Of a stretch of 64,000 bases of DNA, positions 12,771 through 40,218 are shown piece after piece. Both the position numbers and the translations under genes were made by a program. The notes beneath the pieces are model-generated. The model was not told the origin of the DNA, did no database searches, and saw nothing but the letters and a program-made list of their open reading frames with translations. This stretch comes from Dendrobates tinctorius (lineage: Eukaryota): positions 31,124,001-31,188,000 of the forward strand of contig NW_027361730.1 of NCBI RefSeq assembly GCF_039654945.1. The letters are read 5' to 3'. Each line of letters starts with the position of its first letter. Position 1 is the stretch's first letter.

Positions 12771-13779
12771 TAGTAAATGTGGCTATGCGGACTGGGCGGG
12801 GCTATACACTCAGCTTTATATATATATATATATAATCATTATAATTTGTTATAACTAACCGTAGTTAGTTACTATGCCCGGGCAGCGCCGGGCTCTTCAG
12901 CTAGTAATAATAATAATATAAATCCAATACATGTGCTACGCTGAATGAAACTTATTTTAAACTGATGACAAGATGGTACTTTACCCCAGTTAGACTTAAT
13001 AAAATCTTCCCAGCACAGTCACCATTGTGCTGGAGGGAATGCAGGATAAAGGGAGACATCAAGCATATCTTTTGGGAATGTACCTTGATTATAGAAACAT
13101 GGAAAAAAGTGGAACAGCTGATATAACAGAATACACACAATAATATATGACTCTCTCCACAATTAAAAATTCTATCATTAGGGATAAGTGATATACTGAA
13201 AGAAAATATCTATATGGTCTCACATATAAGAATGGTAACAAATCATTTAATTGCATCCCATTGTAAAAGGAAAGATCCTCCAATACAGAGGACATCATAG
13301 AAAGAATAGCTCCACATAATGTGTACGAATTTAATCACGCCACAAGACACAATAGATTTCCCAAAAACTCAAAAAATTTTGCCCCCTGGAATAAAGAATT
13401 CACAATACCATTCACCTAGTCCCCTCTAATCACGGGAGAGAAGGAAAGAGAAAGGGAAAAAGGAGAAAAAGAAAATCAGTATGAGAAGTTCTCGGGGTAG
13501 GATCCTTCCTATACAATGGGAGAATTAGCAATTGCAAAAGAAGTGTAGGCTTAGAATACAAGAATTTGTTTTATTAAATGTCGAATTAATAGAAACGTAA
13601 TTAGAAATAAAAATATTGTGTATTATTGGTGGATATAAAGTTGATATAATTGTATTTTCTTTAATAATAGGTAATAGTATGTTTATAACTGTTTAAACAG
13701 ATAGATATTTTTATTGTTTTTGTTTGTTTGTTTTTTGGGAAAAATGGACTATACAGCATTTACTCCTGTTTTTATCCTA

Positions 13780-15318
13780 GATTTGGATAAACCCATTCCA
13801 ACAAGTCCGATAAAGTCTTGGATATACTCAAAAGACACTGGGCGATTTTAAAAACTGATCGAAATATATGTAAGTTGTTACACTCAGGCCTTGTCCTGGC
13901 GCGGCGCCCAGGTCTGCTACTGTTACACCTGGTCCCCGTCCTGGTGCTGCGTCCAGGTCTGCCGCTGCCCCTCGTTCTGGGCACTCACCTCGAGCCTCAC
14001 ATGCTGTCCTTGGGCGGCAGCCGGCCTCCTCTGGATCTCATGCTGCTGCTCAGCGTTCAGGTCTCCCTCCTGCCTCCACCTCCTGGCGCCCTGTGGGGAG
14101 ATCTGTAGCTAAGGCTATTAGGGCACGCCCGCCCGCTCTCCTGCCTTCTTAAAGGGATGGCGTGCATTATTCAAAAAATGCAATTAACCAATGGCAGCAC
14201 ACTGGCTGCTATTTCTGGCCTCTCCTCCATAGGGAGGGCGCCGGAGCAACGAGTATCTATCATTGCTACATCTGGTTCTCATGCTAACCTGTCTGCGCTG
14301 CGTCTGCAGTCTCTGTGCATTTTCTAATGCTCTCTGTCTCCACAGCATATCAGTATCCTGTGCTTCCTGGCTATATCTGCAACCATCTGGGCGAAAGCCA
14401 TCCCGTTCCGCAACAGCGATCCGTGTCTGAGGACTGTGTGAAGGTCACTGGAACCGACTCCTTACCATCTACCTGGATCCAGGACCCGGCTCATTATGGA
14501 CTCTACTGTAACTACTGTTATCCCTTTTGGTCCCGCTGGGACCGCTGCCACGTGTTCGGGGTCTATCTGGAGGTAGCACCTGTGTCCTCCAGGTATTCCA
14601 TTCTGGCCCTGTCTGAAGGGCTTTACTATGGGTGCCCGGGGCTCACTAGTCACGCCCCCTTCGGAGCCCCCGGAACCGTGGTCCCGAGGTTCCACTTTAA
14701 AAATAAAAACGAATGTGAACTTCACCATCTCTGCCTCCGCTTCCATTCGTTACACAAGTACATTACCCCAAAACCCTCAGTAATGTATAGGAAGGGTAAA
14801 TCAATTAAGACCGGGTGGTAAGGAGCCATCTGGAACCCTGTAAGAAAGAGTGCACATGGCTACAGAATAGAGCCATGGGCACATTCAGATGTGGACACTG
14901 CAGTTTTTGTAAAAGTATATGTCCATTACAGACATTCTGTAGTGCGTATGCTAAAAGGACATATAATATGAAATCGTTTGCTAATTGCAAAACTGCAGGA
15001 GTTATATATCTGTGTACCTGTTCTTGTCCCCTTGACTATGTGGGGAAAACTAAACGTGACCTGAGAGTCCGAATAGGTGAACATCTGGGGGATATCAGAC
15101 ATTGTAGAGACACCCCCCTTGCATGCCATGTCAATCTGATACACGGGGGTGATATTAAACAGATTTCTTTTCATGTGATTGAGAGAGTTCAGCCCGCAGT
15201 GAGACAGGGAGTTTGGGATTGGAAGATCCTACAGCGAGAAACACGCTGGATCTTCTGGCTTGAATCACAGAGCCCTAAAGGTTTAAAAGAACAATTAAAT
15301 GTTACTAGTTATTTATGA
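13780..15318 (+). pseudogene. Penelope-like element C-terminal region with GIY-YIG endonuclease (Neptune-like Cys linker), split by an LTR
   Basis: ILKRHWAILKTD...ICK|YITPKPSVMYRK; FRCGHCSFC; VIYLCTCSCPLDYVGKTKRDLRVRIGEH; ETRWIFWL. Confidence 0.85.
13876..14754 (+). mobile_element. Solo LTR inserted in the Penelope ORF
   Basis: TGTTAC...GTTACA termini; 5-bp TSD TAAGT/CAAGT with one mismatch; AATAAA near 14702; removal restores the Penelope frame. Confidence 0.82.
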
Positions 15319-15582
15319 TCAGTGTGGTCCTGTAAAGTTCCAGTATATCTCTTTAGGCTCCTCTGACACCTTTATGATGATTGTGTCAGTATAATATTAT
15401 GAATTATTGCAATTTCTATTTTTTTCTGGATACAAATAAATTGCTCTAAGTCTTTTTATGGGAAATGCAATCTGAGTTGGGGCATGGTAACTGAAATGAT
15501 ATAATGCTCTCATATGTTTCAAAATACACTGAATGTGGACTAAATTGTTATCCACAGTGTGCAGGATTTGCATTTGGGGCAC

Positions 15583-15936
15583 TGTTGTGAGTTCATTCTC
15601 CCCTTCACCTTTGATGTCTGATGAACTCCCTCTGCGGGTGAAGAGAGGTAGTGAAACTGATTGGGATGGGAAGAACCTGTCGTCTGAACAGGCGGAGTGT
15701 GATTGGACATCTGGAATTTTTGAGTGGATATAAGGCAGCCGACGCCCTGCAGGGCTGCTGGTGATCCTTTCTGCTCTGAGCTCTTGCATCCAGTTTAGTT
15801 CCTGTCTACTAAAAGCTAAGTTTTGCCCTGCTATTATTCCATGAGATTTTGTCTGGTTTCCTTAGTGTTTGTATTCAGCCAGTCCTGGTTGGGACTGGCT
15901 GAATTCCATTTTTGTCTCTGATCAGTTTATCTCTTT
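15583..15936 (+). mobile_element. 5' fragment of an LTR of the same family as the 23514 and 31581 LTRs
   Basis: Starts TGTTGTGAGTTCATT; shares GGATATAAGGCAGCCGACGCCC...GCTGGTGAT. Confidence 0.8.
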
Positions 15937-17229
15937 CTGGATGCAAGAGCTCAGAGCAGAAAGGATCACCAGCAGCCCTGCAGGGCGTCATCGGCATCTT
16001 CTGCGGCAGGCCTGCCCCAAGGAATGGAAAGAGACTCAGACTGCTCTGTGTGGATTATAAGCACCTGTGGAATACAAATCACCCACCTGTGGATTACAAA
16101 TTGGGAACGCTGTCGCGGATCCGCATTGTTGGTTAGAGGATCCGGGGTGGTACCAGGAGCTGTGCAGGATGGCGGTGTTACTTCAACACAGAAAAGAGAT
16201 CCAGGTGTTTGCTGTTGTCCCCAATGGACTGGGGCCCCCTCCTACGTACCCCTGGGGCCAGCGATATGTACCAGGAGTCCGGCGCTCCCACATACTGGAC
16301 CCTGGCAGATGGGTGGAAAGGCCTGCCAATGCCCCACCCAGCAGAGGGAGTGGCACTGAGAAAAAGTTTGGCTGCAGTTGCTTGGCGCCATTCGATTGCT
16401 GCCCACCGGACGGTATGAGACGCTGCTGGTGTCGAGGCATCGGCCGCCTGGAGTGGCAATGGCGGCGGGATGTCGAGCTCCGCCAGAAAGTGTCATCTGC
16501 AGAGCCACGAGCAGGCAGCAGGATGATGAGGGGGAAAGCGGAGCCTGTGCGGAATCAGCGGGAGCGGCCACCCAGAATATCGGCGGAGAGTCTGCCCGCG
16601 GAGGCCCTAAGCCTGGAAGCTAGGCCCGTCGGATGACAGGGTGAAGAGCAGAGACCGCGGGAGGAGCTGCGTGATGACGTAACGGAGGCCGCGGTGCCGG
16701 GGAAGGTGAGAGTTCCTGCGGCCCCCACCATTTGGCTGCAGCACGCGGCAGCCTGCGTACCTGAGAGACCGGTCACAAGAGGCCCTCCCCTCTATGCTGA
16801 ACTGAGCGGGGCCTCCGCTCCAAGTCCTGAACCACCCCGCCCGGAGACGCCACGTACGGTGCCGCCGGAGCGGAGCCTGATCCCATAGGGCGCTGTTGCG
16901 CTTCCCCTGCCACTGACGACCTCATTTCTAAAAGCGGTCACTACCCCGGCCCCGGCTGAAGCGTCAAGTGCGGCCTACCCTGCGGCCACGGTTATGCCGG
17001 TGCTGGAACCGGCTGTGTCCTATTTGGCAGGTCCCGTGACCCAACATACCGAGAACACAGCTACCCCCATCCGCCATTCGGCTCCAGCGGCTGCTGGGCC
17101 GCAGAAACCATCGGCCGCCTCTGTCCTTCCCTCTTCTTCGGTGGAGCCCTGCCCAATGGACTCTAGAGCCTGCGCTGTGCCCTCCATTTGGGTTGCGGAG
17201 GTTATTAAAAAGAAGAAGGCACGGGAGCA

Positions 17230-19129
17230 TCTAAAGAAGAATATAATGCTGTCTGCAGAACCTGCAGGGCACAAATCAGATTATCTAAAGCTGAAAATGA
17301 ATTGAGGCTTGCAAGAGATGTCAAAAGCAATAATAAAGGATTTTGGGGATATGTCAAAAGTAAAAGAAAAGTCAAAGATGCTATAGGATTTTTACAGGAT
17401 GAAAATGATGAAATGGTAAGACAGGATGTTGAGAAGGCTGAACTTTTAAATTCCTATTTTGCATCTGTTTTCTCTCAGAAAGGAAATGTAACATCAACTG
17501 TTATTCACTGTCCTATTAAGGGAATAGAAGAATCCAGGATATCTATAAACAGAAAGATAGTGAGGAAACACTTAGCTAGCCTAAATGAATTCAAGTCTCC
17601 AGGTCCAGATGAATTACACCCCAGAGTACTGAAGGAGATAGCAGAAGAAATTTTTGAACCCCTCTCTATAATCTTTGAAAATTCTTGGAGAACAGGAGAA
17701 GTGCCAGAAGACTGGAGAAGAACAAATGTTGTTCCTATCTTCAAAAAGGGGAAGAAGGTGGACCCAGGTAACTATAGGCCGGTGAGTCTGACTTCTATAC
17801 CAGGAAAGATCTTTGAACAAATTATTAAACAACATGTATGTCAATACCTGGATAAGAATGAAGTGATTAAACAGAGTCAGCATGGGTTTGTAACTAATAA
17901 GTCATGTCAGACTAACTTAATTTCCTTCTATGACGGTATCACTGATTGGTTGGATCAAGGAAATGCTGTAGATATAGTATATCTTGACTTCAGCAAAGCA
18001 TTTGACAAAGTCTCTCATACAATCCTTATTGAAAAAATGATTAAGTATGGAATGGACAAGGCAACTGTTAGGTGGATTCATAACTGGCTTAGTGATCGGA
18101 CCCAAAGAGTGGTCGTAAATGGCTGCACATCCAGTTGGAAGAATGTCTCAAGTGGGGTACCACAGGGCTCTGTCCTGGGCCCTGTATTGTTCAACATCTT
18201 TATCAACGATTTAGATGAAGGAATTGAGGGTAAACTGATTAAATTTGCTGATGACACAAAGCTAGGAGGGATAGCTAATACTAGAGAAGAGAGAGAGAGG
18301 ATTCAAAAAGATTTAAATAAACTGGAGAAGTGGGCAGCAACTAACAGAATGGTTTTTAACAGGGAGAAATGCAAAGTACTACATCTGGGCAATAAAAATG
18401 GAAAAAGCATATATAGAATGGGAGGAATAGGGCTAAGTGACAGCACATGTGAAAAAGACTTGGGTATACTAATAGATCACAGACTGAATATGAGTCAACA
18501 GTGTGATGCAGCAGCAAAAAAGGCAAATGCAATTCTAGGATGTATTAACAGAAGCATACAGTCTAGATCACGTGAAGTCATTATTTCCCTCTACTCCTCT
18601 TTGGTCAGACCTCATCTGGAATATTGTGTCCAGTTTTGGGCACCACATTTTAAAAAAGACATCAACAAACTGGAGCAAGTTCAGAAAAGAGCGACCAGAA
18701 TGGAGACCGGTCTGCAAACCCTGTCTTATGAGGAAAGGTTGCAGGATTTGGGAATGTTTAGTTTGCAAAAGAGAAGACTGAGAGGAGACTTAATAGCTGT
18801 CTACAAATATCTAAAGGGCTGTCACATTGTAGAAGGATCAACTTTATTCTCATTTGCACAAGGAAAGACTAGAAGCAATGGGATGAAACTGAATGGGAGG
18901 AGACACAGATTAGATATTAGAAAAAACTTTTTGACAGTTAGAGTGATCAATGAGTGGAACAGGCTGCCACGAGAAGTGGTGAGTTCTCCTTCAATGGAAG
19001 TCTTCAAACAGAGGCTGGACAGACATCTGACTGGGATGATTTAGCGAATCCTGCTTTGAGCAGGGGGTTGGACCAGATGGCCCAGGAGGTCCCTTCCAAC
19101 TCTACGATTCTATGATTCTATGATTCTAT
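17230..19129 (+). mobile_element. 5'-truncated CR1 LINE, young
   Basis: Open RT frame to the stop at 19044; CR1 3' UTR GGGTTGGAC...GGTCCCTTCCAAC; (ATTCTATG)n tail; GAGCA duplication at the junctions. Confidence 0.95.
17302..19044 (+). CDS. CR1 ORF2 reverse transcriptase (partial, uninterrupted)
   Basis: KSPGPDELHP, NYRPVSLTS, YLDFSKAFD, SGVPQGSVLGP, FADD. Confidence 0.92.
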   Translation: MRLARDVKSNNKGFWGYVKSKRKVKDAIGFLQDENDEMVRQDVEKAELLNSYFASVFSQKGNVTSTVIHCPIKGIEESRISINRKIVRKHLASLNEFKSPGPDELHPRVLKEIAEEIFEPLSIIFENSWRTGEVPEDWRRTNVVPIFKKGKKVDPGNYRPVSLTSIPGKIFEQIIKQHVCQYLDKNEVIKQSQHGFVTNKSCQTNLISFYDGITDWLDQGNAVDIVYLDFSKAFDKVSHTILIEKMIKYGMDKATVRWIHNWLSDRTQRVVVNGCTSSWKNVSSGVPQGSVLGPVLFNIFINDLDEGIEGKLIKFADDTKLGGIANTREERERIQKDLNKLEKWAATNRMVFNREKCKVLHLGNKNGKSIYRMGGIGLSDSTCEKDLGILIDHRLNMSQQCDAAAKKANAILGCINRSIQSRSREVIISLYSSLVRPHLEYCVQFWAPHFKKDINKLEQVQKRATRMETGLQTLSYEERLQDLGMFSLQKRRLRGDLIAVYKYLKGCHIVEGSTLFSFAQGKTRSNGMKLNGRRHRLDIRKNFLTVRVINEWNRLPREVVSSPSMEVFKQRLDRHLTGMI

Positions 19130-19252
19130 GAGCAGCAGATATGGAGCCTGCTTCATGAAAAGGGAGAGGCAGGTATGGCGGCTAAGAGATCGAGGGGACG
19201 GCTGGTGTACACTAACATTGCAAAGGGTTATGGTTTCATCCAGGATGAGACT

Positions 19253-20686
19253 GGGGCGTGCAATATTATTCGGCCCCTTTACTTTCAGTGCAGCAAACTC
19301 ACTCCAGAAGTTCATTGTGGATCTCTGAATGGTCCAATGTTGTCCTAAATGACTAATGATGATAAATATAATCCACCTGTGTGTAATCAAGTCTCCGTAT
19401 AAATGCACCTGCTCTGTGATGGTCTCAGGGTTTTGTTTGATGCACAGAGAGCATCATGAAGACCAAGGAACACAACAGGCAGGTCTGTGATACTGTTGTG
19501 GAGAATTTTAAAGCCGGATTTGGATACAAAATGATATCCCAAACTTTAAACATCCCAAGGAGCACTGTGCAAGTGATCATATTGAAATGGAAGGAATATC
19601 ATACCACTGTAAATCTACCAAGACTCGGCCATCCCTCTAAACTTTCATCTCAAACAAGGAGAAGACTGATCAGAGATGCAGCCAAGAGGCCCATGATCAC
19701 TCTGGATGAACTGCAGAGATCTACAGCTGAGGTGGGACAGTCTGTCCATAGGACAACAATCAGTCGTACACTGCACAAATCTGGCCTTTATGGAAGAGTG
19801 GCAAGAAGAAAGCCATTTCTTAAAGATATCCAATCCATAAAAAGTGTCGTTTAAGGTTTGTAACAAGCCGCCTGGGAGACACACCAAACATGTGGAAGAA
19901 GGTGCTCTGGTCAGATGACACCAAAATTGAACTTTTGGTAACAATGCCAAACGATATGTTTAGCGTAAGGGCAACACAGCTCATCACCCTGAACACACCA
20001 TCCCCACTGTCAAACATGGTGGTGGCTGCATCATGGTTTGGGCCTGCTTTTCTTCAGCAGGGACAGGGAAGATGGTTAAAATTGATGGGAAGTTGGATGG
20101 AGCCAAATACAGGACCAATCTTGAAGAAAACCTGTTGGAGTCTGCAAAACACCTGAGACTGGGACGGAGATTTGTCTTCCAACAAGGCAATGATCCCAAA
20201 CATAAAGCAAAATCTACAATGGAATGGTTCACAAATAAATGTATCCAGGTGCAGAATGGCCAAGTCAAAGTCCAGACCTGAGAGAATCTGTGGAAAGAGC
20301 TGAAATCTGCTGTTCACAAACGATCTCCATGAAACCTCACTGAGCTTGAGCTGTTTGTCAAGCAAGAATGGGAAAGAATTTCAGTCTCTTGATGCACAAA
20401 ACTGATAGAGACATACCCCAAGCGACTTGCAGCTGTAATCGCAGCAAAAGGTGGCGCAACAAAGTATTAAGTTAAAGGGGTCGAATAATATTGCATGCCT
20501 CACTTTTCAGTTTTTGAATTTCCACAAAAATTTAAAATAACCAATAAATTTCGTTCAATTTCACAATTGTGTCGCACTTGTTGATTCTTCACCAAAAATT
20601 TACATTCGGTATCTTTATGTTTGAAGCATGATATGTGGGAGAAAGTTGAAAAGTTCCAGGGAGCCGAATACTTTCGCAAGGCACTG
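19253..20686 (+). mobile_element. Tc1 transposon lacking the outer left TIR; frameshifted transposase 19456-20470
   Basis: Right TIR ...GAATACTTTCGCAAGGCACTG followed by TA; MKTKEH, WSDDTK, FQQGNDPKH, GGATKY. Confidence 0.92.
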
Positions 20687-20844
20687 TATATAATCTGTAC
20701 ATGACTTCCAGCTCAGTGCTATATTTCTGTAGCTACGGCAGCCATTAGTCCTCTTAAGTTAGGCTACTTTCACATTTGTGTTTTTTTGCGCTGCGCTGCG
20801 TGCACAGTGCAAACACGCATAAAAAATGCATCATGCATTTTTAA

Positions 20845-23197
20845 CCCCTTCACTACCTAGGGTGGTTTGCACGTTAACTCCCGGGCCAATTTTTACAATT
20901 CAGACCACTGTGCCTTTATGAGGTAATAACTCTGAAACGCTTCCATGGATCCCGGTGATTCTGACACTGTTTTCTTGAGACATATTGTACTTCATGTTAG
21001 TGATAAAATTTAATTCAAATAACTTGCGTTTATTTGTGAAAAAAATGGAAATTTGGCGAAAATTTTTAAAATTTCACAATTTTCCAACTTTGAATTTTTA
21101 TGCTCTTAAATCACAGAGATACGGCACGCAAAAATCTTAATAAGTAACATTTCCCACATGTTTACTTTACATCAGCACAATTTTGGAACCCAAATTTTTT
21201 TTTGTTAGGAAGTTATAAGGGTTAAAAGTTGACCAGCGAGTTCTCATTTTTGCAACACCATTTTATTTTTACGGACCACATCACATTTGAAGCCACTTTG
21301 AGGGGTCTATATGATAGAAAATACCCAAAAGTGACACCATTCTAAAAACTGCACCCCTTAAGGTACTCAAAACTACATTCAAGAAGTTTATTAACCCTTC
21401 AGGTGCGTCACAGGAATTTTTTTGAATATTTAAAAAAATGAACATTTAACTTTTTTTCACAAAAAAAATACTTCAGGTTCAATTTTTTTTCTTTTACCAA
21501 GGGTAACAGGAGAAATTGGACTGCAAAAGTTATTGTGCAGTTTGTACTGAGTACGCTGTTACCTGATATGTGGGGGGGAACCACTGTTTCGGCGCATGGC
21601 AGAGCTCAGAAAGGAAGGAGCGCCGTTTGACTTTTTCAATGCAAAATTGGCTGGAATTCAGATCGGACGCCATGTCACGTTTGGAGAGCCCCTGATGTAC
21701 CTAAACAGTGGAAACCCCCCAAGTGAACCCTTTCTGGAAACTAGACCCCCTAAGGAACTTATCTAGATGTGTGGTGAGAACTTTGAACCCACAAGGGCTT
21801 CACAGAAGTTTATAACGTACAGCCGTACAATTAAAAAATCATATTTTTCCCACAAAAATGACCTTTACACCCTCAATTCATATTTTTTCAAGAGTAACAG
21901 GACCCTAAAAGTTATTTTGCAATTTGTCCTGAGTACGCTGATACCCCATATGTGGGGGTAAACCACTATTTGGGTGCATGGCAGAGCTCGGAAGGGAAGC
22001 AGCGCCATTTGACGTTTTTGGCTGGAATTAAGATCGGACACCATGTCGCGTTTGGAAAGCCCCTGATGTACCAAAACAGTGAAAACCCCCCACAAATGAC
22101 ACCATTTTGGAAACTAGACCCCCCAAGGAACCTATCTAGATGTGTGGTGAGCACTTTGAACCCCCCAGTGCTTCACAGAAGTTTATAACGACCGGGTGTG
22201 AAAATAAAAAAATCGTATTTTTTCCACAAACAAGATCTTTTAGTCACCAATTTTTTTTATTTTCCCAAGGGTAACAGGAGAAATTGGACCCCAAAAGTTG
22301 TTGTCCAATTTGTCCTGAGTACGCTGATACCCCATATGTGGGAGAAAACTACTGTATAGGCACACGTCGGGGCTCGGAAGGGAAGTAGTGACGTTTTGGA
22401 ATGCAGACTTTGATGGAATGGTCTGTAAGTGTCATGTTGCCTTTAGAGAGCCCCTGATGTGCGTAAACTGTGGAAATCCCCCACAAGTGACCCCATTTTG
22501 GAAACTACACCCCCTAAGGAACTTATCTAGATGTGTGTTGAGCACTTTGAACCCCCCAGTGCTTCACAGAAGTTTATAACGACCGGGTGTGAAAATAAAA
22601 AAATCGTATTTTTTCAGCAAACATGATCATTTAGTCCCCATTTTTTTTATTTTCCCAAGGGTAACAGGAGAAACTGGACCCCAAAAGTTGTTGTCCAATT
22701 TGTCCTGAGTATGCTGATACCCCATATGTGGGAGAAAACTACTGTATAGGCACACGTCGGGGCTCGGAAGGGAGGTAGTGACGTTTTGGAAAGCAGACTT
22801 TGATGGAATGGTCTGCGGGTGTCATGTTGCCTTTGGAGAGCCCCTAATGTACCTAAACAGTGGAAACCCCCACAAATGACCCCATTTTGGAAACTAGACC
22901 CCCTAAGGAACTTATCTAGATGTGTGGTGAGCACTTTGAACCCCCAAGGGCTTCACAGAAGTTTATAATGCCCGGGCATGAAAATAAAAAAATTGTATTT
23001 TTTCCACAAACATGATCATTTAGCCCCCAATTTTTTTATTTTTGCAAGGGTAACAGGAGAAATTGGACCCCAAAAGTTGTTGTCCAATTTGTCCTGAGCA
23101 CGCTGATACCCCATATTTGGGGGAAAACTAATGTATGGGCACACGTCAGGGCTCGGAAGGGAAGTAGTGACGTTTTGGAATGCAGACTTTGGAATGG
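20845..23197. mobile_element. TTAA-target (piggyBac-like) non-autonomous element, left part, with ~390-bp tandem repeats
   Basis: TTAA followed by CCCCTT terminus; the unit AAGGGTAACAGGAGAAATTGGAC recurs near 21500, 21890, 22267, 22657 and 23046. Confidence 0.6.
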
Positions 23198-23513
23198 TGT
23201 TATGAATGGGTCACCGAGGAGAAAAAAACAAAACAAGCTAAGTCACAGAAAACCAGAGAGGTTGGTAACTATGCAGATTGCAGATCCCTGATCCTAACCA
23301 CACAACTAGCAGCAGCCGTGGAGCGTACCTACGATGGTCCTAGACGCTTCGTCACAGCCGGAGGACTAAATAAGCCTATAGCAAGAAAGGGGGAAAACTA
23401 ACTGCCCCAGAGCAGACCTCATAGGAAAGACAGCCCCCACACATGTATTGACGGTGAAACAAGATGAAAGCACAAACACAGGCAGGAAAATAGGCTGACC
23501 AAGCGATGGGGCC

Positions 23514-26500
23514 TGTTGTGAGTTCATTTTCCCCTTCATTACTGAGGCCCGAGGAACTCCCTCTTCTGGTAAAGAAAGGTAGTGAGCCTGATTGTCAAAC
23601 ACCTGAGGCTGATGATTGTGACTGGCTGAGTGGAGTTACGGACTGGATATAATGCTGCCGACGCCCTTCTGCCCTGCGGGTGATTTCTCTGTGGGATCCT
23701 TGGAGACCAGTCTGAATTCCTGCTCCTCCAAAGCTAAGTTTGCTTCTCGGCCTTTTGCTTTTGTGCTTTGACTTTGTTTTTTTTCTGGATTTCTGCCATT
23801 CCCTGCTGGGGTGTGCTGAATTCATTTAGCTCTGTCTTCTGAAAATACCTGAGTGCTGATTCAGTTTTTGAAGCCTAGCTGCTTCAGGGCCTTTTTCATA
23901 TCAGCTGGTTGGCTTTTGTCTTTGATAGGGTTTTGGCAGATTGCAGACAGCAGCCTTCCTGTCCTTTCCTATCTAGGTACTTTTGGGGCCCCATCTTTGC
24001 TCAGTCTATCTTTCTGTCTGTGTTAGTATTTTCATCTTGCTTCACCGTCATTATATGTTGTGGGCTGCCTATTGCTTTGGGGTCTGCTCTGGGGCAGTTT
24101 AGATTTCCCCTTTCTTTCTTTAGGCCTATGTATTTCTCCGGCTGTGATCGAGGGGTCTAGGGCATCGTAGGAACCCCCCACGGCTACTGCTAGTTGTGTT
24201 GATAGGGTCAGGGGTCTGCAATCTGATAGTTGCCAACTTCTCTGGTTTTCTGGACTTAGCTTGTATTTCTGCTTTTGCCTCCTACGGTGACTCATTCATA
24301 ACAGAATCACCCGCCATACCGCAGATTCTAGGGTACTCAATAGCAGGAAAGAATTGTAAAAAAAAAAAAAAAAAGTGTATATTTTTTCCTCTATATCTCT
24401 GAGGCCATAGGGGGAATTTTTTTTTTCTCTCAATGGAGATAAAGCAATTGTCTGATCGTGTGGAGCAGCTCGCTGCGGAAGTGCGGGGAATTTCCGCCTA
24501 CCTTGCTCATTCACATGCTGCTGAACCAAAGATTCCTACACCTGATGTATTTTTTGGGGATCGGTCTAAATTTTTGAATTTCAAAAATAATTGTAAATTA
24601 TTTTTTGCCTTGAAGCCTAACTCGTCAGGGAGCTCCGCGCAGCAGGTTAAAATTGTCATCTCTTTGCTGCGTGGCGATCCCCAGGATTGGGCGTTTTCTT
24701 TGAAACCAGATGATCCTATTCTCACTAATGTGAACGCATTCTTTCAAGCTTTGGGGTTGTTGTATGATAAACCTAATGCCATTGATCAGGCTGAAAAGAC
24801 CCTGCTGGCATTGAGCCAGGGTCGTGATTCTGCAGAATTGTACTGTCAAAAATTCCGAAAGTGGGCAGTACTTACTACCTGGAATGATAATGCCTTGGCT
24901 GCTCTCTTTCGGAAGGGGTTGTCAGAAGCCGTAAAAGATACTATGGTGGGATTTCCTGTTCCCTCTGGTCTGGACGATTCTATGTCATTAGCCATTCAGG
25001 TTGATCGGCGTTTACGTGAACGCAGGATTGCACGTGAGGTGTTGCCACCGGTTGAATAGACGTCTGAACCTATGCAATGTGATAGAGTATTGTCTAAGGC
25101 GCAACGTCAGGAGTTCAGAAGGCGTAATAAGCTGTGTTTTTTCTGTGGAGATGCCTTGCATATTATTTCTGTTTGTCCTAAACGAGAGAAACGCTTTGCA
25201 CACACGTTTTCTGTTGGTGGTGTTCAACCTAAGTTTCTTCTGGCAATTACTCTGATCTGCTCCCTGTCCACATTTTCCGCCATGGCGTTTGTGGATTCGT
25301 GAGCAGCCCTAAACCTAATGGACTTGGATTTTGCTAAACGTTGTGGATTTCCGATGACACCTCTGCAGACGCCTATCCCTTTGAGGGGAATTGATGCTAC
25401 TCCTTTGGCTAAAAATAAACCCCAGTTTTGGACCCAGGTGGTAATGCGGGTCGCCCCAGACCATCAAGAAAATTGCAGATTTCTGGTGTTGCATAATCTG
25501 CATGATACTGTTGTTCTGGGGTTTCCCTGGTTACAGATTCATAATCCAGTTTTGGATTGGAAATCTGTGTCTGTGGTGAGTTGGGGTTGTCGGTGTGCCT
25601 TTAGTGAGGCTCCGGTGTTTTCCACCTCTCCTCAGTCGCATGATGTTCCTGATTATTTGGCGGACTTTTATGATGTATTTAGTGAGAATGAGTCTGCGTC
25701 TCTGCCTCCTCATAGGAGTTATGACTGTGGAATTGAACTGAGCCCGGGGTGTAAATTTCCCAAGGGTCGGCTCTTCAATTTATCTGTACCCGAGCACGAG
25801 GCTATGTGATCCTATATTAAGGAGGCGTTGGAGAAGGGTCATATTAGACCATCCTCGTCACCCTTGGGTGCCGGGTTTTTTTTTGTAGCCAAAAAGGATG
25901 GATCATTAAGACCTTGTATTGATTATCGTGCCCTCAACAAAATTATTGTTAAATATCAGTATCCGTTACCCCTGATTTCTGATCTATTCTCCAGAGTTAA
26001 AGGTGCTTGCTGGTTTACCAAGCTTGACCTCAGGGGGGCGTATAATCTTATTCGCATTAAGCATGGGGATGAATGGAAGATGGCGTTTAATACTCCGGAG
26101 GGGCATTTTGAGTACCTGGTGATGCCTTTTGGGCTCACTAATGCCCCTTCTGTCTTCCAGTGCTTCATGAACGATATTTTCCGAGATTTTGTTGATAAAT
26201 TTTTGATTATCTATCTGGATGATATTTTGATCTTCTCCAAGGATTGGGATTCTCATGTGGAACATATTCGGACTGTGTTCCGGATCTTGAGGGAGAATTC
26301 CCTGTATGTCAAGGGATCTAAATGCCTTTTTGGAGTACAGAGGATTTCTTTTTTGGGATTTATTTTGTCCCCGTCAACTATTGAAATGGACCCGGCTAAG
26401 GTACAGGCCATTCACGATTGGGTTCAGCCCACTTCTTTGAAGGCCCTCCAGAAGTTTTTGGGTTTTGCTAATTTTTATCGGAAATTTATAGCAAAATTTT

Positions 26501-26815
26501 CTAGTATTGCCAAGCCATTGACTGATTTGACTAAAAAGGGTGCTGATGTGTTAAATTGGTCATTATATGTTGGGGGCTGCCTATTGCTTTGGGGTCTGCT
26601 CTGGGGCAGTTTAGATTTCCCCTTTCTTTCTTTAGGCCTATGTATTTCTCCGGCTGTGATCGAGGGGTCTAGGGCATCGTAGGAACCCCCCACGGCTACT
26701 GCTAGTTGTGTTGATAGGTTCAGGGGTCTGCAATCTGGTAGTTGCCAACTTCTCTGGTTTTCTGGACTTAGCTTGTATTTCTGCTTTTGCCTCCTACGGT
26801 GACTCATTCATAACA
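23514..26815 (+). mobile_element. Related Gypsy element inserted in the 3' LTR of the minus-strand copy; 5' LTR 23514-24303, truncated 3' LTR ~26561-26815
   Basis: TGTTGTG...CATAACA termini; GGGGCC on both flanks; gag 24433, CFFCGDALHIISVC, protease, RT 25828-26560; RNase H and integrase deleted. Confidence 0.92.
24305..24314 (+). promoter_or_regulatory. Self-priming primer-binding site (AATCACCCGC)
   Basis: 1 nt after the 5' LTR; exact complement of GCGGGTGATT at 23676-23685, ~25 nt after the TATA-like GATATAAT. Confidence 0.75.
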
Positions 26816-29800
26816 GGGGCCCAAACTAACTAGAAAGGATAGGAAAGGAAAGACACTGTCTGCAATCTGCAAAAAACCCTACAAAAATAAAGTCCAACAC
26901 TTCTGATAGCAAAATTAACCCTGAAGTCACTAGACTTCTCCCACAATATCAGCACTCTGAAATATTCTGAGACAGAGCAAAAAGAGGCCAATCTAATAAG
27001 GGACAAAAAGCAAATTGGCAAATACAGATAAATAAGAGTGGAAATTTAGCGCAGCCCCAGCCGGGGCTGGCTGACCACACAAGAAACTGAATAGACCAAC
27101 AAAATCAAGTGTGAACATTAGCAGAAAAACTTAGCTTTAGATGACTGGAACAGAGCTGAAAACCAAGACCTGACAAGCCTGAAGGTATCACCAGCACCAG
27201 AAAAGGGCGTCGGCTGTCTTAAATCCAGTCTGAGATCCCTGAGGTCCAATCGTCATCCTCATTATCAGGTGGCAGATCTCTACTGATTAAATCAGCCTCA
27301 CTACCTCCGGTTCCAGCAGAGGGAGTCTGGAAGGAGATCTCACAACTGGTGGACCAGAAAATGAACTTTAAACCGGGGACCAATGGTCCTATGCCGGTTG
27401 GAAAATCGCTGAGCCTTTTTCTGAGAGAGTGACAACTTATCCACCACTTGATCCCATATCTGCTGCATTCTCTCAACCACAGTGTCCACACCTGGGCAAG
27501 ACGAAGATTCCACTTGTCCTGAAGAGAATCGAGGATGAAACCCAAAATTATAGAAAAAGGGTGACATCAAAGGGGCAGAACTAGCTCTATTGTTCAGTGC
27601 GAATTCGGCCAAGGACAAAAATGAGACCCAATCATCCTGATCAGCAGATATAAAACATCTTAAATAAGACTCCAAGGTCTGGTTTGTTCTCTCAGTATGT
27701 CCATTGGTCTGGGGATGAAACACGGAGGAGAAGAATAACTGAATTCCCAGATTGGAACAAAAGGCTTTCCAGAATCTGGAAACAAACTGGACTCCTCTGT
27801 CGGACACAATGTTCTCAGGAATCCCATGTAACCGAACCACCTGTTGTAAAAACAAGGGCACCAACTCAGCCGAAGATGGCAACTTTGGGAGTGGTACAAG
27901 ATGGACCATCTTCGAAAATCTATCACAAATCACCCAGATAACAGTCATTCTCTGAGAGACAGGAAGATCAGAAATAAAATTCATTGAGATATGGGTCCAT
28001 GGCCTCTTGGGCACCGGCAGGGGCATCAGCAACCCACGAGAACGAGAACAGGATTTAGACCGAGAACAAGTCCCACAGGACTTGACAAAATTCCTGACGT
28101 CACGAGATAAGGCAGGCCACCAAAAAGACCGACTCACCAAATCTCTGGTACCAAAAATACCTGGATGACCAGCCAATGCGGAGCAATGAATTTCAGACAT
28201 CACTCTCTTTCTCCACTGGTCAGGAACATACAATTTTCCCATAGGGCAACGCTCAGGTTTATCCTCCTGAAATTCCTCCAGGGCGCGTCTCAAATCGGGC
28301 GAAATGGCAGAAAGAACTACCCCCTCATCTAGGATGGTAGTAGGCTCGGTCACATTAAGAGAATCGGCAAAGAAACTCCTAGAAAGGGCGTCCGCCTTAA
28401 CATTCTTAGTGCCCGGAAGAAAAGAGACCACAAAATTAAAACGCGTGAAAACAAGGCCCATCTAGCCTGTCTAGGATTCAAGCCTTTGGCCGACTCCAGA
28501 TAAATCAAATTCTTGTGATCGGTGAAGACCACACCTTGATGTCTAGCTCCCTCCAACCAATATCTCCACTCCTCAAATGCCCATTTCATGGCCAACAATT
28601 CCCAATTCCCCACGTTATAGTTGCGTTCAGATGGGGAGAACTTTCGAGAAAAGAAGGCACAGGGATTCATCTTAGAAGTCACAGGGTCTTTTTGGGACAA
28701 AACAGCTCCTGCACCAATCTCAGAAGCATCTACCTCCACCTGAAATGGAAGTGAGACATCAGGTTGCCGTAAAACTGGAGCTGAAGTAAATCTCTGCTTA
28801 AACTCCTGAAATGCTGAGACAGCCTCAGGAGACCAATTCAGCACATCAGCGCCCTTCTTGGTCAGATCAGTCAGTGGTTTGGCAATACCAGAAAAATTAC
28901 CTATAAATTTACGATAGAAATTAGCAAAAGCCAAAAACTTCTGGAGAGCCTTCAAAGAAGTAGGCTGAACCCAATCATAAATGGACTGTACCTTGGCCGG
29001 GTCCATTTCAATAGTCGACGGAGACAAGATAAATCCCAAAAATGAAATCCTCTGTACACCAAAGAGGCATTTCGATCCCTTAGCAAACAGGGAATTCTCC
29101 CTCAAAATCCGGAACACAGTCCGAACATGTTCCACATGAGAATCCCAATCACTGGAAAAGATCAGAATATCATCCAAATATATGATCAAAAACTTATCCA
29201 CAAAGTCCCGGAAAATATCATTCATGAAGGATTGGAAGACAGAAGGGGCATTAGTGAGAGCCCAAAAGGCATCACCAGGTACTCAAAATGTCCCTCCGGA
29301 GTATTAAACGCCGTCTTCCATTCATCCCCGTGCTTGATGCGAATAAGATTATACGCCCCCCTGAGGTCAAGCTTAGTAAACCAGCAGGCACTCTTAACTC
29401 TGGAGAATAAACCAGACATCAGAGGTAACAAGTACTGATATTTAACCATCACCACAGACCCAGATTTCCAATCTAAAACTGGATTATGAGCTTGCAACCA
29501 GGGAAAACCCAGAACAATAGTATCATGCAAATTATACAGCACCAGAAATTTACAATTTTCTTGGTGGTCTGGGGCAACTCGCATTATCACCTGGGTCAAA
29601 ACTGAGGTTTATTCTCCGCCAAAGGAGAAGCATCAATACCCCTCAAAGGAATAGGACAAACCACAACGTTTAGCAAAGTCCAAATCCATCAGATTCAACG
29701 CTGCTCCAGAATCCACAAAAGCCTTAGTGTAAAAAGTGGATAAGTAGCAGATCAGAGTACTTGCCAAAAGAAACTTAGATTGTACACCACCTACAGCAAA

Positions 29801-30714
29801 TGTGTGTGCAAAACGTTTTTCTCATTTAGGGCAGACAGAAATAGTATGAGAGGCGTCTCCACAGAAAAAACACAGCCTATTAGGCCATCTAAACTCCTGA
29901 CGTTGCGCCCTAGACAAAACCCCATCACATTGCATAGGTTCAGACATTTGTTCAAAAGGTGGCAGCGCCTACTGTGTAGTTTTACGTTCACATAAACGCT
30001 GATCAACTTGAATAGCTAATGACATAGAATTATCCAGACCAGAGGGAACAGGAAATCCCACCATAACATCTTTTACGGTCTCTGATAAACACTTCCGAAA
30101 GAGAGCTACCAATGCACTATCATTCCATGTAGTAAGGACCGCCCACTTTTGGAATTTTTGACAGTATAACTCTGCAGAATCCTGACCCTGGTTTAATGCC
30201 AACAGAGTTCTCTTAGCTTGATCAACAGCATTAGGCTCATCATACCCCAAGGCTTGAAAAAATGCATCCACATTAGTCAAAATAGGATTTTCAGGTGTCA
30301 GAGAAAAAGCCCAATCCTGGGGATCGCCGCGCAGCAAGGAGATGACAATTTTAACCTGCTGCACAGAGCTCCCCGATGAGTTAGGCTTCAAGGCAAGAAA
30401 TAATTTTCAATTATTCTTCAAATTCAAAAATTTAGACCGATCCCCAGAAAACACATCAGGAGTGGGGATCTTAGGTTCAGCTGCATGTGACTGAATGAGG
30501 TAAGTGGAAAATCCCTGCACTTCAGCAGCAAGTTGCTCCACACGATCAGTCAATTGCTTAATCTCCATTAGGAAAAAAAAAAATCCTCCCACGGCCTCAG
30601 AAAAAAAAATAGGAAAAAATATATTAAAAAAAAATTAATTCTGACACTTTTTTTTTCTCTTTTTCTTCTAAACAATCTTTCCCTGCTATTGAGTACCCTA
30701 GAATCTGCGGTATG

Positions 30715-30724
30715 GCTGGTGATT
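30715..30724 (-). promoter_or_regulatory. Self-priming primer-binding site (AATCACCAGC on the minus strand)
   Basis: Exact complement of minus-strand GCTGGTGATT at 31392-31401 in its own 5' LTR. Confidence 0.75.
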
Positions 30725-31581
30725 CTGTTATGAAACGGGTCACCGAGGAGGACAACAAAAGCTAAGTCCCAGAAAACCAGAGAGGTTGGTAACTATGCAG
30801 ATTGCAGATCCCTGATCTTAACCACACAACTAGCGGTAGCAGTGGAGCGTTCCTACGATGATCTAGATGCCTCGTCACCGCCGGAGGACTACATAAGCCT
30901 AAAGTAAGAAAAGGGAAAACTAACTGCCCCAGAGCAGACCTCAAAGGAAAGACAACCCCCACACATGTATTGACGGTGAAATAAGATGAAAACACAAACA
31001 CAGGCAGGAAAATAGGCAGAGCAAACGATGGGACCCAACTAACTATAAAGAACAGGAAAGGAAAGACACTGTCTGCAATCTGCCAAAAACCCTACAAAAA
31101 TAATGTCCAACACTTCTGATAACAAAATTAGCCCTGAAGTCACTAGACTTCTCCCACTATATCAGCACTCTGAAATATTCTGAGACAGAGCAAAGAGAGG
31201 CCAATCTAATAAGGGACTAAAAAGCAAATTGGCAAATACTGATAAATAAGAGTGGAAATTCAGTGCTGGGGCTGGCTGACCACACAAAAAACTGAATAGA
31301 CCAACAAAATCAAGTGTGAACATTAGCAAAAACAGTTAGCTTTGAGAAGGCTGGAACAGAGCTGAAAACCCAGACCTGAGAAACCTGAAGCAATCACCAG
31401 CACTAGACTAGGGCGTCGGCTGTCTTAAATCCAGTCTGAGATTCCTGAGGTCCAATCGTCATCTTCATTATCAAGTGGTAGATCTCTACTGATTAAATCA
31501 GTCTCACTACCTCCTGTTACCACCAGAGGGAGTCTGGAAGGAGAACTCACAGCTGGTGGACCAGAGAATGAACTCACAACA

Positions 31582-32511
31582 GCCAGGCTTGGAAGCTGTG
31601 AAGGGTCTCTCTCGCAGTTAACCTACACATGTAACACAGTTCCATCCAGGCCAGCAGAGGGGACTCTGAACCGGATTTGAAGGGAGGAGTGCTCTCTGAG
31701 GGCCAGGAGGAAGGAGTAGTCAGTTAGTGTGAGGAGGGCCACGTATGGAGAGAAGCTGGAGGTTGAGCTGAGGAAAGAGTGCTCCCTCACAGCAAGAGCG
31801 CATGAACTGGAGCCTGGTCTCCACGGTTGTATGGATACTAACGGTCCTGCAACAGACACCAGAGGAGTAGGAGGCTGTAAATGCCCTACCCCCATCTAAG
31901 ACTCAGAGGCACAACAGCACGGAGTGAGCCAAGAGAGGAATAGCGGCTACAGCTGTCTGCCATACGAGGAGTGCTCGTAGAAGAGAATTAGGAGGAATTT
32001 CAGTGTAATTCAGTACTAGGAGTACTTCACTCAAATAAGCGCTAAGAAGGAGACTGCACAGCCCATCTGCTGAGAGAGAATCCCTGAGTTGCTTCCAGGC
32101 TAGCCTGCTCCGGTACCATCTGTAATCAGGACCCTGGACTGCATTTATCAAGTAAAGGTACAGAAATTGCACCCCGCTGTGTCTTTGTCTGCTTCCTACC
32201 CTTCCAGCACTGCTACATCCCCTGCCAACCACATCTACACTGCCCTGGGACTACAACTTCACCTGTGGGGAGCTTTTACATCTTTGCTGCACCATATCAT
32301 CAGTCCCAGTGGATCTGCATACAGCGTCGGCTTAACATATCACTTGCCGAACACCACAGGTGGCGTCACGAACTATTCCATTAACTACATTCCACCATTC
32401 AATCTTCCCCTATTAATTGGGTGCCCAGGGCCACGGACCGGGTCACCGCTGCTGTGACACATCCCGCTGACCCCGGCACCGAGTACCCCACAGCCCTGGT
32501 AGGGCGACCCA
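31582..32511. mobile_element. Remnant of an unrelated LTR-like repeat (3' part)
   Basis: Ends GGGCGACCCA; no coding capacity; abuts the Gypsy LTR. Confidence 0.45.
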
Positions 32512-33681
32512 TGTGTACACGTTGCGGATTGGGCTCAAGAATTTCCTGACCGGATTCTGCATCTCTTGGAAGAATCCGCAGGTCAAAATCCGCGCATTTT
32601 TTATGCTGATTTTGTGCGGATTTAGTGCGGATTTTAAGCGAATTGTCATGCGTTTTTAGGCCTGCTGTTTTCTATAATGAAATGGATGTAGAAACATAGC
32701 GGAATCCGCACAAAGACTTGACATGCTGCGGAAAATAAACTGCTGCTTTTCTGCGCAAAATTTTCCGCAGCATGTGCAGTTGTGTCCTGAATGTAGCTGG
32801 ATGTATCCTTTACCAGGGGTTTAAGAACACCCTCTACCCATCAAGATATCTGCTCAGTAAGGGTGCCCACGCATGAAATAATCGGCCTCTCTAGGTTTAC
32901 TGTAGTTATTATTGCTTTAAGATAGAGTGGGGGTCTGTCCCACATCCAAAAGTCATGAGTAGAGTTGAGCGACTTTTGGTTTTTTAGGGTCGCGTTTCGT
33001 TTCGTGAAACCCGACTTTTCCAAAAGTCGGGTCGAGAAAGATCGTCCGATTATAGGGAGAAGTCGGGGTCGTCCCGAAACACGAAACCCAATGTAAGTCA
33101 ATGGGGAATAAAAGTCGGCAGTGAGAGGAGGACAGGAAACACACCAACAGTGCCCATTTGAATGCCAAAAGCAACAATTCTTCTTACTTAAGCTTGTCAA
33201 CCTTAATTAACTTCATAATACAAGTTACGCGCTGAAAAATGGGGGTTATTTGGCTACAGACTGTGGGGGGGGGAGGGCTGGCTCCAGGTTTTCATGTGCC
33301 CTGGGCGAAAGAGCGCCCCTTTAACACATACCACAACTCATCATGCTCCGATACGGCAGAGAAATAGCGGTATAGTACAATGAAAAATACCTCACTTTTT
33401 ACATCTCATGACGAGGCCCATCTATTTCTCCATACAGAATCATTGGTCCCATATAATGTTTGAAACAGTATATGATGAGCTCCACATAATGCTACAGTAT
33501 ATGTTGGTCCCCATGGATGTCTTATGGGCCCCATGGATGTCTTATGGGCCCAAATAATGCTCCAAACATAATGGGCCCCATTTCTAATGCTCTAGTGTAT
33601 AATGGGCCCTGTAAATGCTGCTCCAGTGTCTGATGTCCACCTTTGGAATGTTCCAGTGTATGGTGGGCCCCATCTATCATT

Positions 33682-36178
33682 CTCAGACGGTGTTAGGCCC
33701 AGTATGGATTGCACGTGATTGCACAAAGGTGAGAAAGGGTACCGTATCCCCAGATAACATGTATGGATAGTGTACACATTCAAAATATATGTCTATACAT
33801 CAGGAGGCAGGCTCAGACGGTGTTAGGCCCAGTATGGATTGCACGTGATTGCACAAAGGTTAGAAAGGGTACCGTATCCCCAGATAACATGTATGGATAG
33901 CGTACACATTCAAAATATATGTCTCAGGAGGCAGGCTCAGATGGTGTTAGGCCCAGTATGGATTGCACGTGATTGCACAAAGGTTAGAAAGGGTACCGTA
34001 TCCCCAGATAACATGTATGGATAGCGTACACATTCAAAATATATGTCTCAGGAGGCAGGCTCAGACGGTGTTAGGCCCGGTATGGATTGCACGTGATTGC
34101 ACAAAGGTTAGAAAGGGTACCGTATCCCCAGATAACATGTATGGATAGCGTACACATTCAAAATATATGTCTCAGGAGGCAGGCTCAGACGGTGTTAGGC
34201 CCAGTATGGATTGCACGTGATTACACAAAGGTTACAAAGGGTACCGTATCCCCGGATAACATGTATGGATAGCGTACACATTCAAAATATATGTATCAGG
34301 AGGCAGGCTCAGACGGTGTTAGGCCCAGTATGGATTGCACGTGATTGCACAAAGGTTAGAAAAGGTACCGTATCCCCGGATAACATGTATGGATAGCGTA
34401 CACATTCAAAATATATGTCTCAGGAGGCAGGCTCAGACGGTGTTAGGCCCAGTATGGATTGCACGTGATTGCACAAAGGTTAGAAAGGGTACCGTATCCC
34501 CAGATAACATGTATGGATAGCGTACACATTCAAAATATATGTCTCAGGAGGCAGGCTCAGACGGTGTTAGGCCCAGTATGGATTGCACGTGATTGCACAA
34601 AGGTTAGAAAGGGTACCGTATCCCTGGATAACATGTATGGATAGCGTACACATTCAAAATATATGTCTCAGGAGGCAGGCTCAGACGGTGTTAGGCCCAG
34701 TATGGATTGCACGTGATTGCACAAAGGTTAGAAAGGGTACCGTATCCCCAGATAACATGTATGGATAGCGTACACATTCAAAATATATGTCTCGGGAGGC
34801 AGGCTCAGACGGTATTAGGCCCAATATGGATTGCACGTGATTGCACAAAGGTTAGAAAGGGTACCGTATCCCCAGATAACATGTATGGATAGCGTACACA
34901 TTCAAAATATATGTCTCAGGAGGCAGGCTCAGACGGTGTTAGGCCCAGTATGGATTGCACGTGATTGCACAAAGGTTAGAAAGGGTACTGTATCCCCGGA
35001 TAACATGTATGGATAGCGTACACATTCAAAATATATGTCTCATGAGGCAGGCTCAGACGGTGTTAGGCCCAGTATGGATTGCACGTGATTGCACAAAGGT
35101 TAGAAAGGGTACCGTATCCCCAGATAACATGTATGGATAGCGTACACATTCAAAATATATGTCTCAGGAGGCAGGCTCAGACGGTGTTAGGCCCAGTATG
35201 GATTGCACGTGATTGCACAAAGGTTAGAAAGGGTACCGTATCCTCGGATAACATGTATGGATAGCGTACACATTCAAAATATATGTCTCAGGAGGCAGGC
35301 TCAGACGGTGTTAGGCCCAGTATGGATTGCACGTGATTGCACAAAGGTTAGAAAGGGTACCGTATCCCCAGATAAAATGTATGGATAGCGTACACATTCA
35401 AAATATATGTCTCAGGAGGCAGGCTCAGACGGTGTTAGGCCCAGTATGGATTGCACGTGATTGCACAAAGGTTAGAAAGGGTACCGTATCCCCAGATAAC
35501 ATGTATGGATAGCGTACACATTCAAAATATATGTCTCAGGAGGCAGGCTCAGACGGTGTTAGGCCCAGTATGGATTGCACGTGATTGCACAAAGGTTAGA
35601 AAGGGTACCGTATCCCCAGAACACATGTATGGATAGCGTACACATTCAAAATATATGTCTCAGGAGGCAGGCTCAGACGGTGTTAAGCCCAGTATGGATT
35701 GCACGTGATTGCACAAAGGTTAGAAAGGGTACCGTATCCCCAGATAACATGTATGGATAGCGTACACAATCAAAATATATGTCTCAGGAGGCAGGCTCAG
35801 ACGGTGTTAGGCCCAGTATGGATCGCACGTGATTGCACAAAGGTTAGAAAGGGTACCGTATCCCCAGATAACATGTATGGATAGCGTACACATTCAAAAT
35901 ATATGTCTCAGGAGGCAGGCTCAGACGGTGTTAGGCCCAGTATGGATTGCATGTGATTGCACAAAGGTTAGAAAGGGTACCGTATCCCCAGATAACATGT
36001 ATGGATAGCGTACACATTCAAAATATATGTCTCAGGAGGCAGGCTCAGACGGTGTTAGGACCAGTATGGATTGCACGTGATAGCACAAAGGTTAGAAAGG
36101 GTACCGTATCCCCGGATAACATGTATGGATAGCGTACACATTCAAAATATATGTCTATACATCAGGAGGCAGGCACAG
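33682..36178. repeat. 124-bp satellite, about 20 highly similar copies, inside the hAT
   Basis: Exact 124-bp period (ORF starts 33839, 33963, 34087 and so on); few substitutions per unit. Confidence 0.97.
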
Positions 36179-40142: not shown

Positions 40143-40218
40143 TTTTGGTAGAAATGTAGACAAAATCCAACAAACTATATAGTAATGTAAAACAAGGTAC
40201 AAGGTGTCTATAGGACAG

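Follow-up and report, generated by a model that had tools for sequence, protein, structure and literature searches.

A decayed open reading frame in Dendrobates tinctorius, probably carried by a mobile element, encodes a putative cold-shock domain protein

A broken open reading frame (ORF) in the frog Dendrobates tinctorius is probably a gene that was carried by a mobile element, encoded a cold-shock domain (CSD) protein and is dead in this copy. It lies within a stretch of 64,000 nucleotides (NCBI RefSeq assembly GCF_039654945.1, contig NW_027361730.1, positions 31,124,001 to 31,188,000 of the forward strand), here called the window. A Ty3/gypsy element is a tentative choice of carrier, short of an even chance, and a carrier of another kind is somewhat less probable. 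A single frame runs from an ATG at 16169 to 17227, is broken by two stops (16634 and 16886), and resumes at 19130, where it reads EQQIWSLLH...KGYGFIQDETG. Its parts are as follows.

15990..16168, + strand: leader of the ORF, belonging to the repeat family of the ORF, with no coding status claimed; contains TAA 16058
16169..17229, + strand: ORF part 1 of about 353 codons, from a Cys/Arg-containing N-terminal region through a long stretch rich in Pro/Ala to the start of a predicted helix; contains TGA 16634 and TAG 16886
19130..19255, + strand: ORF part 2; right GAGCA copy, remainder of the helix, and CSD strands 1-2 with ribonucleoprotein motif 1 (RNP1) (~19190-19255)

The homolog XP_073436531.1 carries most of the evidence. 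This RefSeq protein of D. tinctorius, named 'uncharacterized' and 431 residues long, was the single match among 8000 scored candidates (E 2.7e-96, with X at the stops of the query). Its residues 1-343 align with 16169-17227 at 55% identity (199/364) and residues 342-383 with 19130-19255 at 71% (30/42). It crosses the site of the CR1 insertion that separates the two ORF parts without a gap, has sense residues opposite both internal stops, and extends 48 residues past the remnant in the window, ending in a complete CSD. The window copy lacks these final 48 residues, which hold strands 3-5.

A HMMER scan of 1.84 billion representatives returned two matches, both from Dendrobates tinctorius. The second, XP_073442857.1, is also 'uncharacterized' in RefSeq and is encoded on a separate contig (29.1 Mb, versus 69.2 Mb for that of XP_073436531.1). 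Its residues 2-45 match the leader at 16039-16165 in a different frame from the ORF; about 130 codons are then skipped, and ~16559-16890 is matched in the ORF frame, without the CSD. These two RefSeq loci, on contigs of different length, place the ORF in a family with two or more loci in Dendrobates. Within the window the ORF has no further copy. A search with residues 325-431 of XP_073436531.1 found only that protein among 34 candidates (lengths 237-755 only), and a word-index search with the 42-residue CSD piece gave one candidate and none that scored.

The original prediction of one frame split by single stops holds on reading the frame: from 15866 up to the CR1, the frame of 16061 has no stops but TAA 16058, TGA 16634 and TAG 16886. 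The ATG at 16169 is the only in-frame start within 15953-16400 and corresponds to Met1 of XP_073436531.1, so TAA 16058 falls in the leader. Coding starts at 15990 and 16067 were rejected, and the ~410 codons first proposed ahead of the CSD motif shrink to about 353 before the CR1. The accompanying argument that each stop is one C>T change from a sense codon is empty, being true of every stop codon, and the residue that a C>T origin of TAG 16886 predicts is absent in both homologs. Between 16169 and 17227, the two stops compare with a mean of 11.2 in 5000 dinucleotide shuffles (P = 0.0002 for that frame). ORF part 1 has 63% GC and a CpG observed/expected ratio of 0.71, versus 0.46 for the window. 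In the leader, a motif scan located three of the four window copies of GG(A/G)(A/T)TA(C/T)AA (16052, 16069 and 16091, within 16046-16105). Two of the three contain GGATTA, which we take to be a K50-homeodomain site, and the spaced motifs may serve the ORF as a promoter element.

In the protein of ~430 residues, an N-terminal region is followed by a low-complexity stretch of ~200 residues rich in Pro/Ala, then by a basic helix and, at the C-terminus, by the CSD. Pro and Ala make up 35% of the 207 residues at 119-325 of XP_073436531.1. Pfam, NCBIfam and PDB gave no match to the upstream ~350 residues, and no host protein matching them appeared in database searches that included the 1.84 billion representatives. 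An Atlas search with residues 1-130 gave no usable feature match and structure matches with a template-modelling (TM) score of 0.33 or less. The whole of XP_073436531.1 had no PDB match up to E 10, and PHROGs gave nothing of note. At the Pfam cut-off, none of 19 reads matched (six frames of 13001-17230, 20600-24400 and 30500-33800, plus XP_073442857.1), a search of low sensitivity in which a known GIY-YIG match was also lost.

The C-terminal domain reads as a divergent CSD, on individual scores that are modest but convergent, and it fails the Pfam cut-off. The gathering score of Pfam CSD (PF00313) is 27 bits; XP_073436531.1 reached 16.1 bits (E 0.01) and the window piece 11.9 bits (E 0.22), both below it. 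NCBIfam CspE matched XP_073436531.1 at E 0.01. A profile built from a three-row alignment and compared with PDB, with matches taken to E 10, placed CspB first (E 1.3e-4, over 60 positions). Its 28 matches consist of 25 named cold-shock proteins, two entries also found by a bacterial cold-shock protein (CSP) control and one unrelated entry; two of the 28 lie below E 0.001. With the window piece as query, all seven PDB matches were cold-shock proteins (E 0.27-0.76). The ESM-Atlas structure neighbours of XP_073436531.1 were CSDs in 5/5 rows (TM 0.57-0.61, residues 357-430), for a model with an overall predicted local distance difference test (pLDDT) of 0.41. A Sinorhizobium CSP, picked as a top match (tblastn E 0.03), shares 18 of 45 residues, and none of 5000 shuffles reached its score. 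RNP1 on strand 2 is KGYGFI in the window and REYGLI in XP_073436531.1, in register with CspB. RNP2 on strand 3 (V-F-V-H-F) is VYVNV in XP_073436531.1 and is deleted in the window. The earlier reading of KGYGFI as part of a CSD is supported by the homolog, which holds the remaining domain with a degenerate RNP2, and by the PDB profile.

Besides its two stops, the window copy was broken by a CR1 insertion and by a deletion that runs into a Tc1.

17225..17229, + strand: left 5-bp target-site duplication, GAGCA, from sequence reading
17230..19129, + strand: CR1 long interspersed nuclear element (LINE), 5'-truncated, with an 8-bp tandem tail and a stop-free reverse-transcriptase frame (611-codon open frame; Pfam RVT_1 E 3.8e-35)
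19252..20686, + strand: Tc1 DNA transposon (Pfam HTH_Tnp_Tc3_2 E 3.9e-18, HTH_SB E 2.4e-16); right end intact, TA at 20687

The LINE ends in TCTATGAT x3.9 at 19101-19131, a tail type from which we take it to be a CR1. The GAGCA copies at 17225 and 19130 are 1905 bp apart, a multiple of 3, so both flanks share a frame. This spacing and the gap-free homolog confirm the proposal that the frame is kept once the CR1 is excised at the duplication. The duplication and the homolog mark the CR1 as a secondary insertion, and an origin of the CSD frame in CR1 ORF1 was rejected. Because its 611-codon frame is stop-free, the CR1 is a young insertion, far later than the decay of the ORF. At the other end, the Tc1 junction does truncate the ORF as proposed; it is not an insertion junction. 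Terminal-repeat comparison shows that the left terminal repeat of the Tc1 begins at the inner direct repeat, ~184 bp short, and a clean insertion was rejected on this basis. A few bases are shared at the join (19252-19255). The CSD gene lost its 3' end, and the Tc1 its tip, in a deletion that runs into the left terminal repeat.

Upstream of the ORF lies part of a long terminal repeat (LTR), which bears on the identity of the carrier.

14809..15318, + strand: GIY-YIG endonuclease end of a Penelope-like element, left flank (Pfam GIY-YIG E 5.1e-5, above cut-off); its AT-rich tail reaches the LTR
15583..15936, + strand: 5' part (~350 bp) of a Ty3/gypsy-type LTR, with a TGTTGTGA start and a TATA-like box near 15727, lacking the 3' end
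15741..15989, no strand: perfect inverted repeat of 53 bp, 15741-15793 / 15937-15989 (100% over 53 bp), with a 143-bp spacer

The GIY-YIG element is presumably Penelope-like, a class we assign from general knowledge. The LTR piece belongs to the TGTTGTGA...TCATAACA type. At 67-72% identity it resembles three LTRs that border gag/pol sequence in the window, those at 23514(+), 31581(-) and 27345(-) (gag at 24403-25056, Pfam PF03732 E 1.6e-8). The piece ends at ~350 of ~800 bp. The Ty3/gypsy LTR adjoins the ORF through the inverted repeat, which links the LTR piece to the leader with short shared bases at both joins. The 53-bp stem folds as RNA at -163.5 kcal/mol (z -17.3; equalled by 0/200 shuffles). 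A perfect 14-bp hairpin at 15873-15904 in the LTR piece, inside the loop of this stem, is shorter in other LTR copies. Two stops in 353 codons correspond to ~1-12% decay, and a perfect 53-bp pair would survive with P 0.35 at 1% and 0.004 at 5%. The inverted join is therefore either younger than that decay or inherited from an already broken parent. The 53-bp inverted duplication is probably a later rearrangement, and after a template switch the original orientation of the ORF to the LTR could be either.

Several features favour a mobile carrier: a second locus that is rearranged, an ORF that is colinear with its homolog and free of introns, its CpG content, the LTR, and a taxonomic range that is narrow. 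The proposed accessory gene of a mobile element is likely, with a putative carrier. None of the three outcomes that would have refuted the original prediction occurred: a CSD match exists, the CR1 flanks are contiguous in the homolog, and there are two Dendrobates loci with no match to named host CSD proteins.

Several results weigh against this reading. No gag, pol, second LTR, primer-binding site, polypurine tract or target-site duplication tied to this copy occurs in the window, and the LTR may adjoin the ORF by accident, as a perfect inverted repeat would suit a join made after the decay. Two relatives are few for a high-copy element. Residues 98-118 of XP_073436531.1 match the window in another frame, owing either to an artefact of the gene model or to a shift compensated in one of the copies, and the N-terminal frame is therefore not secure; the C-terminal helix and CSD are the secure part of the protein. 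Every single library CSD score (Pfam, NCBIfam) is under its curated cut-off, the Atlas feature scores of 0.84-0.87 are leads only, and RNP2 of XP_073436531.1 retains the first aromatic as Tyr and has lost the His and second Phe of CspB. AlphaFold gave low-confidence models (pLDDT 35.5 for XP_073436531.1 alone and 36.3 for the three-row alignment), and a Foldseek search with the latter, void given the model quality, had no match at E 0.001. Constraint was assessed with a protein-only proxy that compares conservative substitutions between the window and XP_073436531.1 with a neutral simulation. Identity by region was 80% (78/97), 55% (108/197), 71% (12/17) and 71% (29/41), with conservativeness P of 0.36, 0.31, 0.16 and 0.085, so the N-terminal and middle regions show no significant protein-level constraint. 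The last two regions pooled (17 differences in 58 codons) lean conservative at P=0.04, a post hoc value and one of five tests. Lastly, the best-of-six-frames P for the openness of the frame is only 0.056 in the same dinucleotide shuffles. Openness by itself is therefore weak evidence, and it is the homolog that makes the ORF convincing.

We weighed four alternatives, the first of which is a sub-case of the preferred reading. Another mobile element (another LTR family, DIRS, a Penelope-like element or a DNA transposon) might have carried the ORF, with the Ty3/gypsy LTR joined by local rearrangement and the helper role unchanged. This is somewhat unlikely. It would account for a join built as an inverted duplication, with a short overlap of bases and unlike a normal LTR-internal boundary, for the early end of the LTR piece, and for a region of piled-up nested insertions. 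However, template switching tends to act locally, which puts the ORF near the Ty3/gypsy LTR, and in the window the ORF has no terminal repeats of another class on either side. We give a similarly low standing to a young, lineage-specific family of host genes in poison frogs (without introns or retrocopied, perhaps domesticated from an element) that encodes a YB-like RNA binder and left a pseudogene that later gained the LTR, CR1 and Tc1. The uninterrupted 431-residue RefSeq model, the few matches, which suit a small family, and a layout like the Ala/Pro domain and CSD of YB-1 are in keeping with such a family. They are offset by the rearranged second locus without a CSD, the fast divergence with a compensated frameshift between copies, the want of any relative outside Dendrobates among the 1.84 billion representatives, and the position of the window copy amid repeat debris.

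Descent from a known host CSD gene (YBX1/2/3, LIN28, CARHSP1/CSDC2 or CSDE1/UNR), as a processed pseudogene or a fragment, is largely refuted and highly improbable, even though the ORF is intronless and two Atlas feature rows (3 and 19; 0.86 and 0.84, leads only) are chordate CSD/CSDE1 clusters. Y-box, CARHSP1, UNR and Lin28 chains are absent among the 28 PDB matches to E 10, while the bacterial CSP control finds YBX1/2, CARHSP1 and UNR in the same PDB library (E 2e-8 to 5e-4). An origin from YBX, CARHSP1 or UNR was rejected on this working positive control; Lin28 is absent from the control, and LIN28 is less well excluded. The upstream 350 residues match no host protein, as the original prediction had anticipated in finding them unlike YBX or LIN28. 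In addition, the CSD is C-terminal, and XP_073436531.1 has no charged tail, CCHC fingers or tandem CSDs. Nearly as improbable is that there is no real gene, and that a GC-rich non-coding repeat with a chance frame and a chance CSD-like motif was annotated as genes. The best-of-six value near 0.05, the unconstrained N-terminal and middle regions and the resemblance of XP_073442857.1 to a pseudo-translation would suit it. However, a full 60-residue CSD pattern in the register of CspB ends a 431-codon open frame in the homolog, and four libraries agree on the fold.

The reading we prefer, a CSD gene borne by a mobile element, may be put as follows. The ORF would be a gene without introns that belongs to a frog repeat family, so far known only from Dendrobates, and that has decayed in this copy. 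A mobile element would have carried it as an additional ORF, and the Ty3/gypsy lineage, whose LTR adjoins it, is the likeliest source of that element. From its fold, the protein would bind single-stranded RNA through the aromatic surface of the CSD. The Pro/Ala-rich region, basic helix and CSD together would suit an RNA chaperone or stabiliser of the element's own transcript, which might protect, store or control the translation of element RNA in germ cells and early embryos. Two stops, the CR1 insertion and the deletion running into the Tc1 killed the copy, and a template-switch rearrangement would have produced the 53-bp inverted repeat now joining the ORF to the LTR.

Host Y-box proteins store maternal mRNA. 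By analogy, an RNA chaperone role of the CSD protein is probable. The available text of PMC6040738 describes YB-1 with an Ala/Pro-rich domain ahead of the CSD and an RNA-dependent support of the production of human immunodeficiency virus, murine leukaemia virus and mouse mammary tumour virus. A bolder version, in which a frog Ty3/gypsy lineage regularly carries a CSD chaperone from a bacterial-like, horizontally acquired CSP instead of from vertebrate YBX, LIN28 or UNR, and masks or stores its own RNA in oocytes, is doubtful. Bacterial CSPs top the matches and resemble the domain more closely than vertebrate CSDs do; this is a ranking and not a tree, and it raises a foreign origin without demonstrating gene transfer.

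The closest sequence matches are the bacterial CspA, CspB and CspE (PF00313). The frog protein shares with them strand 1 (G-x-x-x-x-x-N), the RNP1-like KGYGFI of the window, a V-Y-V strand and LKEGD-x-V-S-Y in register, and short loops. Unlike bacterial CSPs, it has Tyr at the Trp8 position and 360 additional residues at the N-terminus, its RNP2 is without the His and second Phe, its scores lie under the cut-off, and it comes from a eukaryotic repeat context. The Ala/Pro region of YB-1 covers ~50 residues, and that of the frog protein is far longer at ~200. The frog CSD also differs from those of YBX1 and FRGY2 in its C-terminal place and its lack of a basic/acidic tail, and no YBX chain scored up to E 10. 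An Ala/Pro-rich region ahead of a single CSD, as far as the available text describes it, is common to both (PMC6040738). LTR elements with extra ORFs (Ogre, Burro and foamy-like fish endogenous retroviruses) also have an additional ORF of unrelated origin beside an LTR, according to the available main text of a review (PMC6431247) in which neither 'cold' nor 'RNA-binding' occurs. Unlike in these elements, the carrier of the frog ORF and its place relative to gag-pol are putative. The effector of retron Se72 (NCBIfam NF038236) is likewise a CSD-like protein tied to a reverse-transcriptase element. It belongs to a bacterial defence system, and its weak match (E 0.026) reflects the common CSD only, with no shared origin implied.

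In vertebrate LTR elements, most extra ORFs are env or have no known function. The frog CSD gene had not been named before. Targeted literature searches yielded no report of a CSD in a transposable element, and Repbase, Dfam, paper supplements or subscription journals may already describe the ORF. Within the available text of two frog genome papers, 'cold shock' has no occurrence in one (10.1101/2023.11.06.565769) and 'cold' none in the other (PMC12822217). If the reading is right, a CSD encoded by an element would add a novel type of cargo whose job can be tested, and a retroelement would bring its own CSD protein where known retroelements, in the available account, lean on host YB-1 (PMC6040738). 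A marker gene for an unclassified repeat family would be useful because, in the text available, unassigned repeats make up ~39% of the D. tinctorius assembly (10.1101/2023.11.06.565769) and Ty3 elements are linked to large frog genomes (PMC12822217). Other 'uncharacterized' CSD-like RefSeq genes of poison frogs may likewise be repeat-borne.

The rest of the window is mostly repeats, and the only host gene seen is LINGO-1-like, a single-exon coding sequence at 57119-58957 (-) with E 3e-280 to PDB 4oqt/2id5. A probable solo LTR of another family (TGTTAC...GTTACA), with near-matching 5-bp flanks, lies at 13877-14755 and interrupts the Penelope-like frame between ~13790 and 14760. Nested Ty3/gypsy elements of one family fill 23198-31581. 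The (+) element, with an LTR at 23514-24304, gag, part of pol and an LTR piece at 26559-26815 (LTR identity 98.8%), appears inserted in the 3' LTR of the (-) element starting at 31581. The target of the (+) element, GGGGC(C), is similar to the sequence flanking the LTR at 15583, which hints at a target preference. A hAT transposase frame at 36606-40598 (-) is stop-free over 1330 codons, with a BED finger, a dimerisation domain and an unusually long N-terminus, and may belong to a young, intact element. It adjoins an array at 33676-36207 of ~19 copies of a 124-bp unit with 97-99% identity.

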